Part shown: piece by piece, positions 4,775 to 63,557 of the stretch
Layout of the letters: every line of letters starts with the position of its first letter
Position numbering within the stretch: the first letter of the stretch is position 1
From: Candidatus Woesearchaeota archaeon
GTDB taxonomy: Archaea; Nanobdellota; Nanobdellia; Woesearchaeales; UBA10216
Length of the DNA stretch: 64,000 nt
Reading direction: 5' to 3'
NCBI GenBank assembly: GCA_016192915.1
Contig: JACPTF010000002.1
Coordinates: 67,530-131,529 of the forward strand
Notes under the pieces: generated by a model
Told to the model about the DNA's origin: nothing
The model's database searches: none
What the model saw: only the letters and a program-made list of their open reading frames with translations
Translations under genes and position numbers: made by a program

Positions 4775-5387
4775 TGTCAAGCCGACAAGGTCTGAGCTTT
4801 TGCTCCTGAAGAAAAAGATTAAGCTTGCCCGCACAGGCTACAATCTCCTGAAAAAGAAGCGGGATGGCCTGATTCTGGAATTTTTCAATGTTCTCAAGCA
4901 GGCAAAGGATGTCAGGAAGGAGCTTGTTTCTTCGTATGCTGCAGCTCTCCAGAAGATAAACATTGCAAGGGCCATTGATGGCGACCTGGCAATAAAGTCA
5001 ATCTCCCTCGCCCTTAAGAGCTTGCCTGTTGTTGAGGTTGCGACTAAAAACATCATGGGCGTGAAAGTTCCCAAGATTGGCTTTCCTGAGTTCAAGAAGA
5101 GCATCTTTGAGAGGGGCTACGGCATAACGTCAGCCACGTCAAAGATAGACGAGGCCGCCATGGCTTACGAAATTGTCGTTGAGAAGGTTGTTGCGGCTGC
5201 AGAGGTTGAGCTCACCCTGAAGAAGCTGCTGAGGGAAATCGAGAGGACAAAGAGGAAAGTTAATGCGCTTGAGCTTCTGACCATTCCAAGGCTTGAGCAG
5301 GCAGCCAAGTACATCCGGCTGCGCCTGGAGGAAATGGAGCGGGAGAACTTCTCAAGGCTGAAGAGGATGAAGACGATTACGGCTTAG
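4761..5387 (+). CDS. atpD: A/V-type ATP synthase subunit D
   Basis: 208 aa coiled-coil protein [14 protein letters not shown]... typical of subunit D; operon position. Confidence 0.85.
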
Positions 5388-5638: not shown

Positions 5639-6001
5639 ATGTTTCCGGGCATGGATAAGCGCAGTATGGAAGCTGCTATGCGCAAGTTGGGAGTGCAGCA
5701 GCTGAACGTTGATGCGGAAGAAGTTATTATAAGGCTTAAAGGCAACGGCAAGGAGATAGTCATAGCTAATCCTTCAGTTACGAAAGTCAGCATGATGGGC
5801 CAGGAGACATTCCAGGTTGCCGGGGAGTTCAGCGAGCGGCCACAGCAAGCGCAGCAACAGCAGCAATTATTCAGCGATGAGGATGTTAAGACAGTGGTTG
5901 CCCAGGCGGATGTTTCAGATGCTGAGGCAAAGGCAGCCCTTGCAAAGGTTAATGGCGACTTGGCGGCTGCCATTTTGCTGCTTGGCGAGAAAAAGGGGTG
6001 A
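5639..6001 (+). CDS. nac: Nascent polypeptide-associated complex alpha subunit (NAC domain + C-terminal UBA)
   Basis: 120 aa; NAC-domain N-terminus; poly-Q linker QQAQQQQQ; UBA-like tail DVSDAEAKAALAKVNGDLAAAILLL. Confidence 0.8.
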   Translation: MFPGMDKRSMEAAMRKLGVQQLNVDAEEVIIRLKGNGKEIVIANPSVTKVSMMGQETFQVAGEFSERPQQAQQQQQLFSDEDVKTVVAQADVSDAEAKAALAKVNGDLAAAILLLGEKKG

Positions 6002-6993: not shown

Positions 6994-7046
6994 GCGTGCA
7001 TCACGCAAGTAGTTTATTTAGTTAGTTAAAAAGAGGTGCAGTAGTT

Positions 7047-7652
7047 TTGGCAAAAAAGAGGTCAAAGAGAAAGTCTGGTGAAAAAGGTAAGGGGCGCAAG
7101 GCGGCAACAGCTTCTGCCAAGAAGATAAGAAAAAAGAAGGGTGGAGGCCGCAGGAAAATAAAAATAAAATCCGCGATAGTTGTTAAGAAGCCTGTTTTGC
7201 TTGCCGCTGTTGACTCAAAATCGCACATTTCCGGCAGGGGTTCTGGGCTTGTCCTTTACTGGCTCACGCTGCTTGTTCTGGTCATCCTTAACATGTTTTC
7301 AGCTGTTGCTGTTGCCATTCTTCAGCTTGCGCTTTCGGACAACAAGCTTCTGTTCATAGTTGCTGCCATTGGGCTCTTCTTTGGCTACGTTACAAACAGG
7401 CTTGTCAACCACGTTGATAACCTTGAGCTAAAGCACCATTTCTTTGCAAGGCTGCTGGTCCCTGCCGCGGCTATCCTGAACCTTTTGGCAGTTAGTGCTG
7501 CTGCAAACGCTTTGGCACTCTCCTTGCGAATCCAGCCAGTTCATAGCCCAGTCACAATAGCTGCTGCTTACGGCATTGCCTTTGCTGTGCCGTCGCTTTT
7601 TGCCCTTTCAAGGGCTGTCGCATCTCCTTTTTTCAAATCACGGCAAAAATAA
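7047..7652 (+). CDS. Membrane protein with about 40-aa poly-basic N-terminus followed by four predicted TM helices
   Basis: N-terminus AKKRSKRKSGEKGKGRKAATASAKKIRKKKGGGRRKIKIK, then hydrophobic segments; TTG start. Confidence 0.5.
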   Translation: MAKKRSKRKSGEKGKGRKAATASAKKIRKKKGGGRRKIKIKSAIVVKKPVLLAAVDSKSHISGRGSGLVLYWLTLLVLVILNMFSAVAVAILQLALSDNKLLFIVAAIGLFFGYVTNRLVNHVDNLELKHHFFARLLVPAAAILNLLAVSAAANALALSLRIQPVHSPVTIAAAYGIAFAVPSLFALSRAVASPFFKSRQK

Positions 7653-7786
7653 CCTAAAACCATAATCTTTATAAACTACCTGCTGATTCTCGACTACAGC
7701 CTGAAAAGGAACCTTTTCAGTACGGCCTGTCCTGAGCTGTTCAGTTTTCGCGCAGAGAGTTTTTTCTGCTGCAAAATGGAATGCAA

Positions 7787-7886
7787 ACCAAATTCGTGCT
7801 GTGCACGAATGGGCCCAGTCGCAAATCGGGCAATAGCCCGATTGCGCAGTCGGCTGCTGCCGACTTGCGGCGCAAGCCGACTTGGG
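7787..7886. repeat. Modular palindromic repeat element, copy 1, intergenic upstream of rpl3
   Basis: Consecutive hairpins: caaattcgtgc-tgt-gcacgaatgg / gggcccagtcgc / aaatcgggc-aat-agcccgatt / cagtcggc-tgctg-ccgacttg / ...gccgacttggg; shares units with copies at 15922, 34645, 56330, 58321, 63463. Confidence 0.8.
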
Positions 7887-7965
7887 AGTTGCTTTTGCTC
7901 GGATTTGCATACTGGGATTCTTTTCTTGGCCTCGTTTTTGTGGAATTGTGAAGTTGTGAAGTAAA

Positions 7966-15921: not shown

Positions 15922-16019
15922 CCCAAGTCGACAGCAGTCGCAATTCCGCTCATAGCAGAATGCGCAATCGGGCTTGCCCCGATTTGCGACTGGGCCCAGT
16001 CGCCCAAAGGTGGCTTGGG
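15922..16019. repeat. Modular palindromic repeat element, copy 2, between rps14 and rps8
   Basis: cccaagtcgacagcagtcgc / aattccgc..gaatgcgc / caatcgggc-ttg-ccccgattt / perfect 18-bp palindrome gcgactgggcccagtcgc / ...ggcttggg. Confidence 0.8.
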
Positions 16020-16023
16020 TTAT

Positions 16024-16042
16024 AAAAAGGTCAATCAAAAAA
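16024..16042. repeat. Partial copy of second conserved motif (aaaaggtcaatcaaaaaa)
   Basis: Matches aaaagg(g/t)tcaatccaaaaa seen at 33698, 34742, 63513; lies directly 3' of palindromic copy 2. Confidence 0.5.
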
Positions 16043-16086
16043 CGAAATAAAAAACGAAAATGAACTAAGAAGTGAAGTGATGAAAA

Positions 16087-33700: not shown

Positions 33701-33731
33701 CCCTTTTCGTGGAAAAGGTTCAATCCAAAAA
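33698..33731. repeat. Second conserved motif, copy a (tgacccttttcgtggaaaaggttcaatccaaaaa) between rps11 and rpoD
   Basis: Hairpin cctttt-N5-aaaagg followed by ttcaatccaaaaa; near-identical to the copy inside the tRNA-Leu intron. Confidence 0.7.
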
Positions 33732-33768
33732 CGACACTAGGTGAAACAACAACATCGGCAAGAAGCCG

Positions 33769-34644: not shown

Positions 34645-34694
34645 CACAATTCCGCCAAGGCGGAATGTGCAATCGGGTTTTCCCCGATTTGCAC
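34645..34694. repeat. Modular palindromic repeat element, copy 3, between rpoD and tRNA-Leu
   Basis: Perfect hairpin cacaattccgcc-aag-gcggaatgtg, then caatcggg-ttttc-cccgatttg; same two units as the in-frame copy inside gatA. Confidence 0.8.
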
Positions 34695-34701
34695 CCTTAT
34701 A

Positions 34702-34841
34702 GCGGGGGTGGCAGAGCCTGGTCAAATGCGCTACCTTGAGGTGACCCTTTTTGGAACAAAAAGGTTCAATCCAAAAAAGTTGAAGGGTTGCGAACGGGTA
34801 GTCCCTTAGTGGGTGCGCGTGTTCGAATCACGTCCCCCGCA
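34702..34841 (+). tRNA. tRNA-Leu(GAG) with 54-nt intron at the canonical 37/38 position
   Basis: Manual fold: acceptor GCGGGGG/CCCCCGC (7 bp), D-arm GCAG...AUGC, anticodon stem CUACC/GGUAG with loop UUGAGG (anticodon GAG), long variable arm UCCCUUAGUGGGUGC, T-arm GCGUG-UUCGAAU-CACGU, discriminator A; CCA not encoded; intron 34742-34795. Confidence 0.8.
34742..34778 (+). repeat. Second conserved motif, copy b, inside the tRNA-Leu intron
   Basis: tgaccctttttggaacaaaaaggttcaatccaaaaaa; same hairpin stem (cctttt/aaaagg) and ttcaatccaaaaa tail as copies a and c. Confidence 0.7.
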
Positions 34842-43891: not shown

Positions 43892-44170
43892 AGCGGGAGA
43901 CGCGCCTGAAAGTTGGTAAGGCTTGAACCTTTCGGTTTGCTCCGCCATCGCTCCTCTCCGCTACCCTCCAAGCGCAAACACTTACGATTCGTGCTGCTTC
44001 CTTCCGGACCTGACACTTTGACCATAAATGCTAACCCTGCAGGACAGAGACTCAACGCTTTAGCAAAGGCCTACAGGCCAATACCAGACCGCCCCTCAAG
44101 CTTCGGTCCACCCATGAAGCCCGTATGGTGCAACAGCGCAGGGCTGGCGCGCCAACCTAGTCTCCCGGCG
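43892..44170 (-). ncRNA. ffs: Signal recognition particle RNA (7S/SRP RNA)
   Basis: Minus strand carries GUCAGGUCCGGAAGGAAGCAGC (conserved helix-8 SRP54-binding motif) at 43994-44015. 5' GCCGGGAGAC pairs with 3' GUCUCCCGC (terminal helix 5). TATA-like aacctttaaa about 25 nt upstream; T-run downstream; no protein gene on this strand. Confidence 0.8.
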
Positions 44171-53214: not shown

Positions 53215-54534
53215 CTAAAATTCAAGGATACCCTTGGCTTCTGCAACAAGGCTGGGGCTGCTGCCGCCGTGCCAGGTTGACCTTGGGCGGACTCTCATCG
53301 GATAAAGGCGCTCATTGGTATCGTCAAAAAGGAGAGCTGCGCCTTTTACCCTCGGCAGGTCGTTGAGCGACTTGTCAAGGCCCTCGCGCATGTAGCTCTG
53401 CATCAGGGCGCCAAGGGCGTCAACGTCAATCTTTGCAGTAACACGATGGGAGATAACGATATCCGATTGTGTCATGACGTCGGTATGAATCTGGCCTGGC
53501 TGCTGCGATGCAAGAACCAGGGAAATGCCGGGCTGCCTGCCCTCCCTGAGGACAGTGATTAGGGAATTCGACGCCGGCGTGATGCCCTGCTTGGGAAGGA
53601 ATTCGTGGGCCTCATCGAGAAAAAGCCAAATCAACGGGACTTCCTTCTTCTCGCCTGCAAGCTTCCTAGAGAAGGATGTTGCCTGTTTTATTGAGGCCAT
53701 TTCCTCAGCCTTCCTTATGAGCATCCTTTCGTTAAACAGCTTCTTTGAAACAAGGCCAATGACCAATGCACGGATGTTGTTCTTGCCCCCAGAGACGGCA
53801 TAAGGGCTTATGTCAAGTATTGTAATCTGCCCGCCAACAGCCAGGTCGCTGATTAGCGTTGATTTCTCGCTGAAAAGCCCCCAATCTTCAGCTGAGAGGA
53901 ACATGTTTTCAACAGCCGCCCTTGTCTCATTGCTTGTCCTGTCATCCTTCCTTACCTCAGCCACGATGTCGTTTAATGAAAAATCCGCCTGCTGCTTCCT
54001 GAGCCCGGAGACAACCCTTCCGATAAGAGTGCCAAACTCGCTTGTGATGTCAACCTCGAAAATGCCGCACCAGTCGCCAATGGTGAGCTCTGCCGGGTTG
54101 ATTGAGAAAGGCAGGTCAACCGGTATGCCGCGGTCCTTGAACTCCTGGTAGCTGCCCAGGGGCACGTAAACCCGCGCGTTAAAGTGCTGGTAAGGAATCT
54201 GCCACTCCCTGAGAAGGGCTTCGTCCTTCCTGTTCTCGTACTTGGTTGTCCAGAAAATTCCCATGGTGTCAAAAACTACGAGGCTGAGGTTTTTTGTGAG
54301 CTCTGGCTCAAGGGACATCATGCCTTCAGCCATTGCCATAATAGAATAGCTTTTCCCGCTTCCCCTCTTGCCAAAAACTGAAACAACATGGCTTCTCAGA
54401 ACGTCCATGTAAATTCCTGTTGACAGCGAGGTTGTCTGGCCCATCTTGACGTAATGCTTGCCAATAAGGAAGGTGCCCTTATCGCCAAAAGCCCTCCTGT
54501 CTTCCTCATCCCTTCCGACAATTATCTCGTACAC
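53215..54534 (-). CDS. HerA/FtsK-like P-loop ATPase (DUF87-type)
   Basis: 439 aa; Walker A FGKRGSGKSY; Walker B LFLDEAHEF; no adjacent NurA-like nuclease. Confidence 0.65.
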   Translation of the reverse strand: MYEIIVGRDEEDRRAFGDKGTFLIGKHYVKMGQTTSLSTGIYMDVLRSHVVSVFGKRGSGKSYSIMAMAEGMMSLEPELTKNLSLVVFDTMGIFWTTKYENRKDEALLREWQIPYQHFNARVYVPLGSYQEFKDRGIPVDLPFSINPAELTIGDWCGIFEVDITSEFGTLIGRVVSGLRKQQADFSLNDIVAEVRKDDRTSNETRAAVENMFLSAEDWGLFSEKSTLISDLAVGGQITILDISPYAVSGGKNNIRALVIGLVSKKLFNERMLIRKAEEMASIKQATSFSRKLAGEKKEVPLIWLFLDEAHEFLPKQGITPASNSLITVLREGRQPGISLVLASQQPGQIHTDVMTQSDIVISHRVTAKIDVDALGALMQSYMREGLDKSLNDLPRVKGAALLFDDTNERLYPMRVRPRSTWHGGSSPSLVAEAKGILEF

Positions 54535-54607
54535 GCACTAACCTCTTTTGCAGCTATTCCAGCTGTTCTGCTGTTGTGGCAATAAATACTTTGCGCTAGT
54601 GGGGTGC

Positions 54608-54744
54608 TTTCAAGTTAATTGGCAAAGCCGACTTTGGTGCTGCGCACTTCCTTTCCCTCCCCTACGCTTAGCGTGGGGAGAGGAAAGCAACCCAAATGCA
54701 GTTTGGGCAAAGTCGGCAACAAAAGACACTTAACTTGACATTAT
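54608..54744. mobile_element. MITE-like element: about 135 bp with terminal inverted repeats, flanked by imperfect 17-bp direct repeats
   Basis: Ends tcaagttaa ... ttaacttga; internal long hairpin with perfect 13-bp arms cctttccctcccc / ggggagaggaaag around tacgcttagcgt. Flanks cgctagtggggtgcttt (54592-54608) and cgctagtgggaagcttt (54752-54768). Shares gccgactttgg / caaagtcggc with the palindromic family. Confidence 0.65.
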
Positions 54745-54790
54745 CCGCTAGTGGGAAGCTTTATAAAATCGCTGTGGCTTCACAGGAGAA

Positions 54791-55390
54791 ATGGCAAAAA
54801 GCATTGGGGAAGGGAACGGCATCAGCGAAGAGTTCGCAAGTCTCAAAAAGGAGATAGAAACTATTGACTCTAAAAGAGAAGCTCTCATCGCCAGCACAAG
54901 GGAAATACTGAAGGCATCCAAAGGAGCGATCTATTCCTTGCAACGAGGCGATAACAAGGCGGCGGAAAAGGCGCTTGCTGAACTGAAGCCAAAGATTGCC
55001 GCGCTAAAGCCTTATTCTGAAGATGCAAACTATGCGAGCGTCACAAAGCCTCCAATCCAGGAATATGTTGAGGCAGCCTGCTTCAGCGAATTCATCAACA
55101 ATGGAAAGATACTGCCACGGGAAAAGCTTGGAGTTTCGGCGGAAAACTATATCGCCGGGCTTTGCGACCTGTCAGGCGAGATTGTGCGCAAGGCAGTCAA
55201 CGCCGCCATAAACGATGATGCCAAGACGGTAATTTCGGGAAAAAAATTCATTGAAAACCTCTACTATGGCCTGATGCAATTTGACTTCAGGAATGGGGAC
55301 TTAAGGAGGAAGTTTGACGGCCTGAAATACGACCTGAAGAAGATGGAAGACCTGCTTCTCAGCCTGAAGCTGCAGGGGAAGGTGAAGTGA
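54791..55390 (+). CDS. Translin-family protein
   Basis: C-terminal FDGLKYDLKKMEDLLLSLKLQG parallels human translin YDGLKYDVKKVEEVVYDLSIRG; YIAGLCDLSGE matches the translin YVCGLADLTGE block. Confidence 0.8.
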   Translation: MAKSIGEGNGISEEFASLKKEIETIDSKREALIASTREILKASKGAIYSLQRGDNKAAEKALAELKPKIAALKPYSEDANYASVTKPPIQEYVEAACFSEFINNGKILPREKLGVSAENYIAGLCDLSGEIVRKAVNAAINDDAKTVISGKKFIENLYYGLMQFDFRNGDLRRKFDGLKYDLKKMEDLLLSLKLQGKVK

Positions 55391-55626: not shown

Positions 55627-57054
55627 ATGACCTATTCAACAGAAGAAAAAAAATCACTCATTAAGAAAGGCAAAATAACGGCATCGAAAAACATCAAAGG
55701 ATTTCTAAACGCCGTAAGGAAGAAAAATGGCAGCGTGAACGCCATATTGCACGTTAATGAAAATGCTGTTGCCGAGGCAGAGGCTGCTGACAGGAAGATA
55801 AAGGCCGGGAAAGCCGGAAGGCTGGCAGGGCTAGCAATAGTGGTGAAGTCAAACATTTCTGTAACAGGGTTGCCTGTTACTTGCGCTTCGAAAACGCTGG
55901 AAAATTATTACGGGACTTTTGACGCTGACGTTATCGCTAAGATAAAGGCCGAGGACGGCATAATAATCGGGATGGCAAACATGGACGAGTTCGCCTGCGG
56001 AAGCTCAGGAGAGACCTCGGCATTTGGGGCAACACACAACCCTGCGGCCCCGGGAAGAATACCGGGAGGGACAAGCTCTGGCTCAGCTGCGGCTGTCGCG
56101 GCAGGATTCTGCGACCTGGCCCTTGGCTCAGACACAGGCGGCTCAATCAGGAATCCAGCCTCGCATTGCGGCGTTGTAGGCATAAAGCCAAGCTACGGAA
56201 GGGTTTCAAGGTATGGACTGGTTGACATGACAATGAGCTTTGACCAGATAGGGCCTCTCAGCAACGATGCTTACGGGGCAGCACTGCTTATGGAGGTAAT
56301 CGCCGGGAAAAGCGAGAACGACGGCACAACACAATTCCGCGATGAGCGGAATGTGCAATCGGGCAATGCCCGATTTGCAACTGCAAATAAAGTTCCGGAT
56401 TACCTGAAGCTTCTGCAGAATGGCGTGAAGGGGATAAAAATAGGCATGAGCCCGGAATTTGAGGAGATGTGCAGTGACAAAAGGATATATGGGCTGATAG
56501 AAGACGCCGCGCATAAATTTGCTGCTGCAACGAAAAGCACGATAAAACAAATAAAGTTGCCTTATGTTGACATGGCAATACAGGCCTACTACCCGATAGT
56601 TTACGTCGAGTTCTTCTCGGGAACCAGGAAATTTGACGGGAGGAAGTACGGCAAGAAAATAGAAGACAGCTGCGGTGAAGAGGTGCTGAGAAGGATACTT
56701 GGCGGCAGGGAAATATCAAAAGCTGAGCACCACGGCACTTATTACAGAAAGGCGCTGATGGCAAAGAAGCGGATAGCTGAAGGCTTTGAAAGCGCATTCA
56801 AGGATGTTGACATCATAATATCGCCAACAACGCCCATGCTGCCGCACAGGATTGGAACGAAAATAAGTGACCCGATGGTAATGTATGCTTATGACGCTTA
56901 TACCATCCCGGTGAATTTGGCGGGGGTTTGCGCGGGGGTTGTGCCTGCAGGGAAAATAGATGGTATACCTGTTGGGCTGCAGACTATGACGCCTGCTTTC
57001 AGGGAGGAATTGCTGCTTCAGACACTTGCCGGAATAGAAAAACAATCTTTATAA
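55627..57054 (+). CDS. gatA: Asp-tRNA(Asn)/Glu-tRNA(Gln) amidotransferase subunit A, carrying an in-frame 57-nt repeat insertion
   Basis: Amidase signature GGSSGGSAAAVA; 475 aa. Segment TQFRDERNVQSGNARFATA (56329-56385) is encoded by a palindromic repeat copy. Confidence 0.9.
   Translation: MTYSTEEKKSLIKKGKITASKNIKGFLNAVRKKNGSVNAILHVNENAVAEAEAADRKIKAGKAGRLAGLAIVVKSNISVTGLPVTCASKTLENYYGTFDADVIAKIKAEDGIIIGMANMDEFACGSSGETSAFGATHNPAAPGRIPGGTSSGSAAAVAAGFCDLALGSDTGGSIRNPASHCGVVGIKPSYGRVSRYGLVDMTMSFDQIGPLSNDAYGAALLMEVIAGKSENDGTTQFRDERNVQSGNARFATANKVPDYLKLLQNGVKGIKIGMSPEFEEMCSDKRIYGLIEDAAHKFAAATKSTIKQIKLPYVDMAIQAYYPIVYVEFFSGTRKFDGRKYGKKIEDSCGEEVLRRILGGREISKAEHHGTYYRKALMAKKRIAEGFESAFKDVDIIISPTTPMLPHRIGTKISDPMVMYAYDAYTIPVNLAGVCAGVVPAGKIDGIPVGLQTMTPAFREELLLQTLAGIEKQSL
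56330..56380. repeat. Modular palindromic repeat element, copy 5, in frame inside gatA
   Basis: cacaattccgc-gatga-gcggaatgtg + caatcgggc-aat-gcccgatttg; near-identical to intergenic copy 3 (34645). Confidence 0.85.
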
Positions 57055-63462: not shown

Positions 63463-63512
63463 CCCCCAATTCGCTTTGGCGAATGGGCCCAGTCGACGCA
63501 AGTCAACTTGGG
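63463..63512. repeat. Modular palindromic repeat element, copy 7, directly after the mcm stop
   Basis: ccaattcgc-tttg-gcgaatgg + gcccagtcgacgcaagtcaacttggg. Confidence 0.75.
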
Positions 63513-63539
63513 CTTTTCCTAAAAGGGTCAATCCAAAAA
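63513..63539. repeat. Second conserved motif, copy c (cttttcctaaaagggtcaatccaaaaa)
   Basis: Hairpin cctttt-ccta-aaaagg + gtcaatccaaaaa; immediately 3' of palindromic copy 7 and about 20 nt upstream of the next ATG. Confidence 0.65.
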
Positions 63540-63557
63540 CTAATTCGAAAATGAACA

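Follow-up and report, generated by a model that had tools for sequence, protein, structure and literature searches.

How a strongly palindromic segment came to lie between two divergent genes, and whether it is or was mobile, is the question raised by this locus in the window, i.e. the whole 64-kb stretch of DNA that was analysed. The two genes encode a HerA-like ATPase and translin, with gatC, gatA, and aspS downstream of the latter, and the spacer between their divergent starts measures 256 bp in the window and 86–108 bp in relatives. The initial annotation had read this spacer as carrying a MITE-like mobile insertion of about 135 bp, with terminal inverted repeats and 17-bp direct repeats on its flanks. 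The features of the locus are as follows.

53215–54534, − strand: gene for a HerA-like DUF87 ATPase, 439 aa (Pfam PF01935, E = 8e-10)
54580–54589, − strand: putative TATA box of the HerA-like gene, CAATAAATAC on the + strand, equal to GTATTTATTG on the − strand
54594–54603, unstranded: left target copy, CGCTAGTGG(G), the 17-mer reaching 54610
54603–54745 (54603/4–54745), + strand: inserted element, with no counterpart in 12 of 12 related spacers
54746–54755, unstranded: right target copy, CGCTAGTGG(G), the 17-mer reaching 54762
54760–54768, + strand: putative TATA box of translin, TTTATAAAA, conserved as CTTTATAAAA or GTTTATAAAA in all relatives
54791–55390, + strand: gene for translin, 199 aa (Pfam PF01997, E = 5e-28)

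The two 17-mers, CGCTAGTGGGGTGCTTT (54594–54610) and CGCTAGTGGGAAGCTTT (54746–54762), match at 15 of 17 positions with a spacing of 152 bp, and the first 3 nt of the putative translin TATA box fall within the right one. The 17-mer has no other match in the 64 kb, where 0.12 would be expected, and the direct repeat is non-random. A direct repeat of 15/17 was reached in none of 300 spacer shuffles, and its perfect part of 10 bp, CGCTAGTGGG, in 4 of 300.

Empty sites in related genomes

We compared the spacer with those of 12 related herA–translin loci (L002–L006, L081/L082, L084–L087, and L097), and also with L090–L096, which belong to the clade of locus L011 described below. None of the 12 related spacers contains the element, and the covariance models R1 and R2 find no match there. 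In four of these loci (L084, L002, L003, and L097), a single 17-mer lies exactly where the window has two, which is the empty site that the initial annotation had proposed to look for. The junction in L084 (...CAATAAATACTTTGCGCTAGTGGGAAGCTTTATAAAATCGCTGTGGCTTCACAGGAGAAATGG) equals the flanks of the window minus 152 bp, and its empty site, GGCAATAAATACTTTGCGCTAGTGGGAAGCTTTATAAAATCGCTGTGGCTTCACAGGAGAAATGG, reproduces the left and right flanks base for base with one 17-mer; L002, L003, and L097 have the same site but for 1–2 substitutions. A neighbour-joining tree built from translin DNA places the window with L003 (88% nucleotide identity), and then with L084 and L002, while L005, L004, L081, L085, L087, and L006 fall outside this group and are empty in every case. 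As the window is nested among genomes with empty sites, the element must have been gained, and one gain is simpler than at least four independent precise losses, which places it on the window's branch. These data show that the element was gained in the window lineage, with duplication of its target.

The alternative would be an ancestral element, not or no longer mobile, that recombination between the direct repeats removed precisely from the relatives. Recombination of one 17-mer with the other would yield the exact single-copy site seen in L084, L002, L003, and L097, but at least four independent deletions of this precision would be required, the six outgroup loci included, several of which are without any 17-mer; furthermore, homologous elements are present at other loci of another genome. 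Ancestral presence followed by repeated deletion was rejected on parsimony using the translin tree, and we regard it as hardly credible. With a filled site set against four exact empty sites, the locus documents recent DNA transposition in Woesearchaeota cleanly and at the level of sequence. For these uncultivated archaea of reduced genome, mobile elements have so far been recorded only in bulk censuses.

The block GGCAATAAATACTTTG is kept in ten related spacers and in L097, with the variant TCAATAAATAATTTG in L006, and this block and CTTTATAAAA probably represent the TATA boxes of the two divergent genes. The element occupies the short variable stretch between the two blocks (~20 bp in the empty form) and leaves both untouched, its right end (54745) being followed 14 bp downstream by the start of the translin TATA-like box. 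The insertion placed the element between the putative divergent core promoters of herA and translin and duplicated the target (CGCTAGTGG(G)), so that each promoter kept its own upstream bases. Insertion into about the sole tolerated spot between two promoters, with the upstream bases of both duplicated, is in effect a natural experiment on the spacing of archaeal promoters.

The window translin is 88–92% identical to translins of groundwater Woesearchaeota MAGs, some of whose records are labelled 'uncultured Methanosarcinales', and the collections searched hold no genome of the same species. For the exact window translin protein, the only record is a 2.3-kb Logan contig that begins inside the element, and a look-up of the exact HerA protein found no record. 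In two relatives, L007 (~1120–1330) and L009 (~5790–5960), the herA–translin spacer carries a short ORF encoding a hydrophobic peptide in place of the element, which suggests that gains recur in this spacer. Unrelated long palindromes lie upstream of translin in L012 (~5100–5300) and L017 (~5880–5950), examples in those Woesearchaeota spacers being AGCAAATCAC...GTGATTTGCT and TAGTAAATAACCTT...AAGGTTATTTACTA; judging from these, hairpin elements of several kinds seem common in such intergenic regions.

Ends of the element, related copies, and the target duplication

The terminal inverted repeats that had been annotated, TCAAGTTAA (54610–54618) and TTAACTTGA (54730–54738), are present as 9 perfect base pairs, lengthen to 12 nt at 92% complementarity (one mismatch), and sit 6–7 nt inside the tips of the element. 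An inner inverted repeat, GCCGACTTTG (54627–54636) with CAAAGTCGGC (54708–54717), is complementary at 10 of 10 positions. The GC content of the element is 0.486, compared to 0.479 for the window. Its parts, from left to right, are the following.

54610–54626, + strand: left subterminal inverted repeat with its conserved extension, TCAAGTTAATTGGCAAA, preceded by the terminal GGTGCTT
54627–54717, + strand: four-way-junction core, supported by folds, covariance-model matches of 46–79 bits, and covariation counts
54627–54636 / 54708–54717, + strand: lower stem of the core, from the fold
54637–54647, + strand: arm 1 of the core, a small arm, from the fold
54651–54687, + strand: central arm of the core, a long arm with the conserved tip CCCCTACGCTTAGCGTGGGG
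54691–54707, + strand: arm 3 of the core, a small arm, from the fold
54727–54745, + strand: right subterminal inverted repeat, CACTTAACTTGA, followed by the terminal 7 nt CATTATC

Among the loci retrieved, a BLAST search with the element as query singled out L011 (= L088), 11.7 kb of the MAG JACPIG01 (GCA_016188205.1), whose translin is 46% identical to that of the window. It contains two copies: L011-A (~964–1118) lies upstream of translin and adjoins a HepT/MNT pair instead of herA, and L011-B (~6995–7156) lies upstream of a gene of 695 aa. A covariance model built from one copy, L011-A, recovers exactly three elements, each on both strands, with 46–47 bits and E ~1e-9 for the window copy. 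After the model was rebuilt on model-guided alignments, MAFFT alignments of the three copies being structurally wrong, the same three elements were found in ~370 kb of Woesearchaeota DNA. The known copies are therefore one in the 64-kb window, two in the 11.7 kb of JACPIG01, and one partial copy of L011-A in L089 (a Logan contig of a sister sample), with no further copies found by the covariance models in ~300 kb of other relatives. Global alignment orients them as window(+) = L011-B(+) = L011-A(−), at identities of 55–62%; the score is 105 for the + strand of the window copy against L011-B(+) and 78 for its − strand.

The ends of the family follow the pattern GGTGnnnTCAAGTTrATTGGC...TTGACnTTnTC, and both tips are common to the window copy and L011-B, the left being GGTG nnn TCAAGTT(A/G)ATTGGCAAA and the right TTGAC nTTnTC. 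Positions 54610–54626 of the window match L011-B 7002–7018 (TCAAGTTGATTGGCAAA) at 16 of 17 bases, and the right end of L011-B, TTAGTTGA followed by CTTTGTC, has the same geometry as that of the window copy. The end motif recurs neither in the 64 kb nor in the 51 loci searched, and the 29 matches to TCAAGTTRATTGGCAAA in IMG/VR include none with the element. A metagenome-wide scan with the conserved tip TCCCCNNCGCTTANCGTGGGG returned 10 matches, none of which is the element, the best (L048) being an unrelated hairpin of high GC; in IMG/VR, the same tip has 0 matches. L090 lacks L011-B together with an 86-aa ORF, and the junction there is too diverged, A-rich, and of low complexity to be defined.

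Two side observations concern these copies. In JACPIG01 (L088, 237–878), the HepT/MNT (nucleotidyltransferase) toxin–antitoxin pair replaces herA, which the more distant L090 retains; the swap is apparently a local rearrangement beside copy A. Two independent Logan assemblies break within elements of the family, L001 beginning at window position 54715 and L089 at the centre of the L011-A hairpin. Such breaks could be palindrome- or repeat-induced breaks of the assembly graph, or could reflect presence/absence polymorphism in the population.

The length of the target duplication sets the length of the element, which is 143 bp with a duplication of 9 bp, 142 bp with 10 bp, and 135 bp (54611–54745) with 17 bp. 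Beyond the perfect 10 bp, 5 of the next 7 positions match (binomial estimate, p ~0.013), giving 15/17 overall. Read as one long duplication, this would point to att-like site-specific recombination, or to microhomology-guided repair or template switching, rather than to a staggered-cut transposase, as duplications of more than 10 bp are atypical of MITEs (2–10 bp in PMC11602168). However, the mismatch on the left makes GGTG, which is the terminal tetranucleotide of L011-B, and both lie 7 nt from the same inverted repeat; because GGTG is shared at an equal distance, GGTGCTT is better read as element sequence. The best flanking 9-mer of the window, CGCTAGTGG/CGCTAGTGG, was reached in 4 of 2000 shuffles, and candidate 9-mers flank L011-A (CATTGTCAC/CAGTGTCAC, 39 of 2000) and L011-B (TCTTAAAAG/TCTCAAAAG, 60 of 2000), all three pairs lying 5–9 nt outside the outer inverted repeat. 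The empty sites back the duplication of the window copy only, so that the L011 repeats are to be taken as candidates; neither of these candidates carries the extension, and no integrase or recombinase gene is found among the window neighbours. We consider such a recombination or repair origin highly unlikely, and a 17-bp duplication that later acquired two substitutions less likely than a shorter one.

The target duplication is probably 9 bp, and at most 10 bp, rather than 17 bp, with the further similarity in GCTTT favoured as coincidence or target preference. The annotated 17-bp direct repeats stand as a 15/17 match 152 bp apart, although the duplication itself is probably the shorter one, and the annotated element is a real insert whose length would be 142–143 bp with a 9–10-bp duplication, the ~135 bp given for it holding only for 17 bp.

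Fold and conservation of the core

The element region folds at −59.6 kcal/mol on the + strand (RNA parameters, z = −6.4 against shuffles) and almost equally well on the − strand (z = −6.2); with DNA parameters, the window copy reaches z = −6.9, and the L011 copies have z = −11.9 and −10.5. The fold is a four-way junction of perfect stems and loops of 3–5 nt instead of the one long imperfect hairpin of the initial annotation. Nor are the 13-nt arms cctttccctcccc and ggggagaggaaag perfect, as had been claimed: a bulged A at 54681 divides their pairing into 6 + 6 bp, and the supposedly palindromic centre, tacgcttagcgt, is only a near-palindrome with a 4-bp stem and a UUA loop. As the + and − strands fold and score alike, no RNA strand is identified.

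In the model-guided alignment, 95.7% of the cells are paired, compared to 75.1% in shuffles and 36–52% when the 3′ partners are slid by 1–3 columns, and 26 of the 44 base pairs change on both sides; these figures derive from three independent elements, with both strands counted and the alignment fitted to the structure. Variation is almost complete in the lower stem and in both small arms, and the central arm with its tip, CCCC(N)CGCTTA(C/G)CGTGGGG, is nearly fixed, the tip CCCC(N)CGCTTASCGTGGGG being almost invariant among copies that are 55–60% identical overall. A four-way junction kept by double changes in copies of such low identity is unusual for a MITE.

This conservation suggests another reading, in which the core itself is functional, as a small RNA or a protein-bound DNA cruciform that, for example, insulates or modulates promoters or yields a stable RNA, with the ends as a mere vehicle. 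The doubly changed pairs and the 95.7% of paired cells, the almost invariant tip, and the fold z-scores (−6.4, −11.9, and −10.5) speak for this reading, and of the three copies, two directly precede translin and all lie 13–21 bp upstream of a TATA-like box. However, every locus was fetched through translin, so that this association is biased by ascertainment, and 12 of 12 closer relatives are without the element at the same locus, which argues that it is not a conserved part of it. Furthermore, the strands are equal in fold and score, with no G–U asymmetry that points to an RNA strand, perfect stems with 3–5-nt loops are typical of DNA palindromes, no Rfam family matches, and the covariation comes from only three elements, read on both strands in a model-fitted alignment. 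A functional core of this kind is unlikely. We find it quite unlikely, too, that the family is propagated or maintained via its folded form and not its sequence, with a protein that recognises the four-way junction and the invariant tip hairpin. Correction within the folded single strand, or selection acting on a functional structure of RNA or DNA beside core promoters, could then keep the stems perfect, a prospect that we rate similarly low. If true, the family would be a mobile module of DPANN archaea that is specified by its structure, rather than a decayed IS.

Known RNA classes gave no better account of the core. At the element, Rfam 15 returned nothing credible, only noise at E ≤ 10, and ARAGORN found no tRNA or tmRNA in the 64-kb window. 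An ACA at 54719–54721, after the lower stem, prompted a comparison with H/ACA guide RNAs, which was rejected: there is no Rfam match at E ≤ 10, no K-turn is visible, the strands of the 'pocket' are themselves hairpins, and the ACA lies ~31 nt from the upper stem, compared to the ~14–15 nt from the pocket that would be expected. The sole Rfam match at gathering level in the 64 kb is an archaeal SRP RNA (43894–44167, − strand, 126.7 bits).

Relation to known elements and to other repeats in the window

By published definitions, MITEs are small and combine inverted and direct repeats with a stable stem-loop fold (PMC10969869, PMC11602168), with the inverted repeats usually quoted as 10–15 bp (PMC11602168). 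The element, at 142–143 bp, falls within the usual size range of about 50–800 bp and is non-coding: a search of 5.8 billion proteins gave no homologue of the only ORF across it (54548–54733, 61 aa, TTG start). It has inverted repeats of 9–12 bp with ends kept in L011-B, a target-site duplication with the undisrupted target in relatives, and a stable stem-loop fold. We therefore consider it likely, at a probability of roughly 75%, that the element is a miniature, non-coding, MITE-like DNA transposon of Woesearchaeota (DPANN), mobilised in trans with staggered cuts of ~9 bp. The mobile insertion proposed by the initial annotation is borne out in this respect by the 12 of 12 empty relatives, by the nested position of the window in the tree, and by the kin elements at unrelated sites in L011.

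Several observations argue against the MITE reading. There are only three copies and one partial copy in ~370 kb, with just one in the 64-kb window; conservation is highest in the central hairpin rather than in the ends, unusually for a MITE bound by a transposase; the perfect inverted repeat is short and lies 6–7 nt inside the tips; and no autonomous element with the same ends is found in the window or the loci searched. With the MITE-like transposon as the preferred reading, a transposase acting in trans would have mobilised the element by ~9-bp staggered cuts, presumably recognising the family ends given above. The four-way junction in the interior, on either strand, would probably be needed for, or maintained by, a transposition or replication intermediate and not a host function, and a folded single-strand intermediate might, speculatively, explain the perfect stems in diverged copies. 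The GGTG ends and 9-bp repeats might resemble those of IS1, whose ends begin with GGTG and whose duplications are mostly 9 bp.

Among described prokaryotic MITEs mobilised by DDE transposases, MITEAba12 of Acinetobacter has 113 bp, imperfect inverted repeats of 16 bp, a core of 81 bp, and 9-bp target duplications. The type strain carries 1–2 copies of this low-copy element (PMC6382973). A second example, QMITE2 of Coxiella, has direct repeats of 7–9 bp, a core of 113–145 bp, and a strong stem-loop fold (PMC10969869). Like these two, the element is small, non-coding, intergenic, and promoter-proximal, with inverted repeats near its ends, a short target duplication, and a strong predicted secondary structure, and its low copy number thus has precedent. 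Unlike them, its inverted repeats are of 9–12 bp and lie 6–7 nt inside the tips, its locally self-complementary arms fold into a four-way junction instead of an end-to-end rod, its central hairpin and not its ends are most conserved, its host is a DPANN archaeon, and no partner IS is known.

Archaeal MITEs are listed for Sulfolobus, Halobacterium, and Haloquadratum (PMC10969869), and a MITE-Tracker census of archaeal MAGs gives a Woesearchaea genome with 105 MITEs per Mb (PMC11602168). The element resembles these in being non-autonomous and lying in archaeal intergenic DNA, and the census indicates that Woesearchaeota genomes can be MITE-rich, although it is without description at the family level, and the Sulfolobus and Halobacterium hosts are unrelated to that of the element. 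The family is apparently previously undescribed, and the element is a real but fairly ordinary miniature transposon. The MITEs of Sulfolobus and Halobacterium derive from identified IS families.

REP/REPIN elements with their RAYT and the palindromic elements of IS200/IS605 are similar in being hairpin-based, with structure conserved over sequence and both strands able to fold. These elements make no target duplication and depend on a Y1/HUH transposase, whereas the element has a flanking duplication and an empty site, with no such transposase gene seen nearby: a scan of the neighbouring genes revealed none of the HUH type. An origin as a REP/REPIN or IS200/IS605-derived element was ruled out by the flanking duplication together with the matching empty site. 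The element also differs from Rickettsia palindromic elements (RPE) in being intergenic, with its own ends and a target duplication.

The window contains a separate family of two hairpins, CAATTCCGC-N5-GCGGAATGnGCAATCGGG-N4-CCCGATTTGCA, made up of short tandem hairpins (ATTCCGC/GCGGAAT, GCAATCGGG/CCCGATTTGC, and CGACTGGGCCCAGTCG) that lie mostly just upstream of genes. Its copies are located as follows.

15941–15988: two-hairpin copy
34648–34693: two-hairpin copy
56332–56379: two-hairpin copy
7778–7915: complex cluster
63466–63516: related cluster

The link that had been drawn between the element and a palindromic repeat family of the window proved weak and unproven. The covariance models of the element match none of the two-hairpin copies, nor anything elsewhere in the window, and the element has only two short words in common with the 7.8-kb cluster, GTGCTGYGCAC at 7796 (one extra exact match) and GCCGACTTGGG at 7876; the cluster itself has a multi-branched fold (z = −6.3). 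The word gccgactttgg, at up to 1 mismatch, has 4 matches in the window compared to 1.16 expected, and two of these are the element itself. In gatA (55627–57054), the copy at 56332–56379 is a 48-bp in-frame two-hairpin repeat, CAATTCCGCGATGAGCGGAATGTGCAATCGGGCAATGCCCGATTTGCA, which adds 16 residues (QFRDERNVQSGNARFA) that are lacking from GatA of L081, L084, L085, and L087. As an in-frame coding insertion, this copy is comparable to RPE and is not detectably of the same family as the element; the two-hairpin family is independently mobile. Finally, a conserved 20-mer, AAAAGG(T)TCAATCCAAAAAC, occurs four times (16024–16043, 33713–33732, 34759–34778, and 63521–63540), with at least two of the copies shortly upstream of an ATG, and may be a shared promoter or leader motif.
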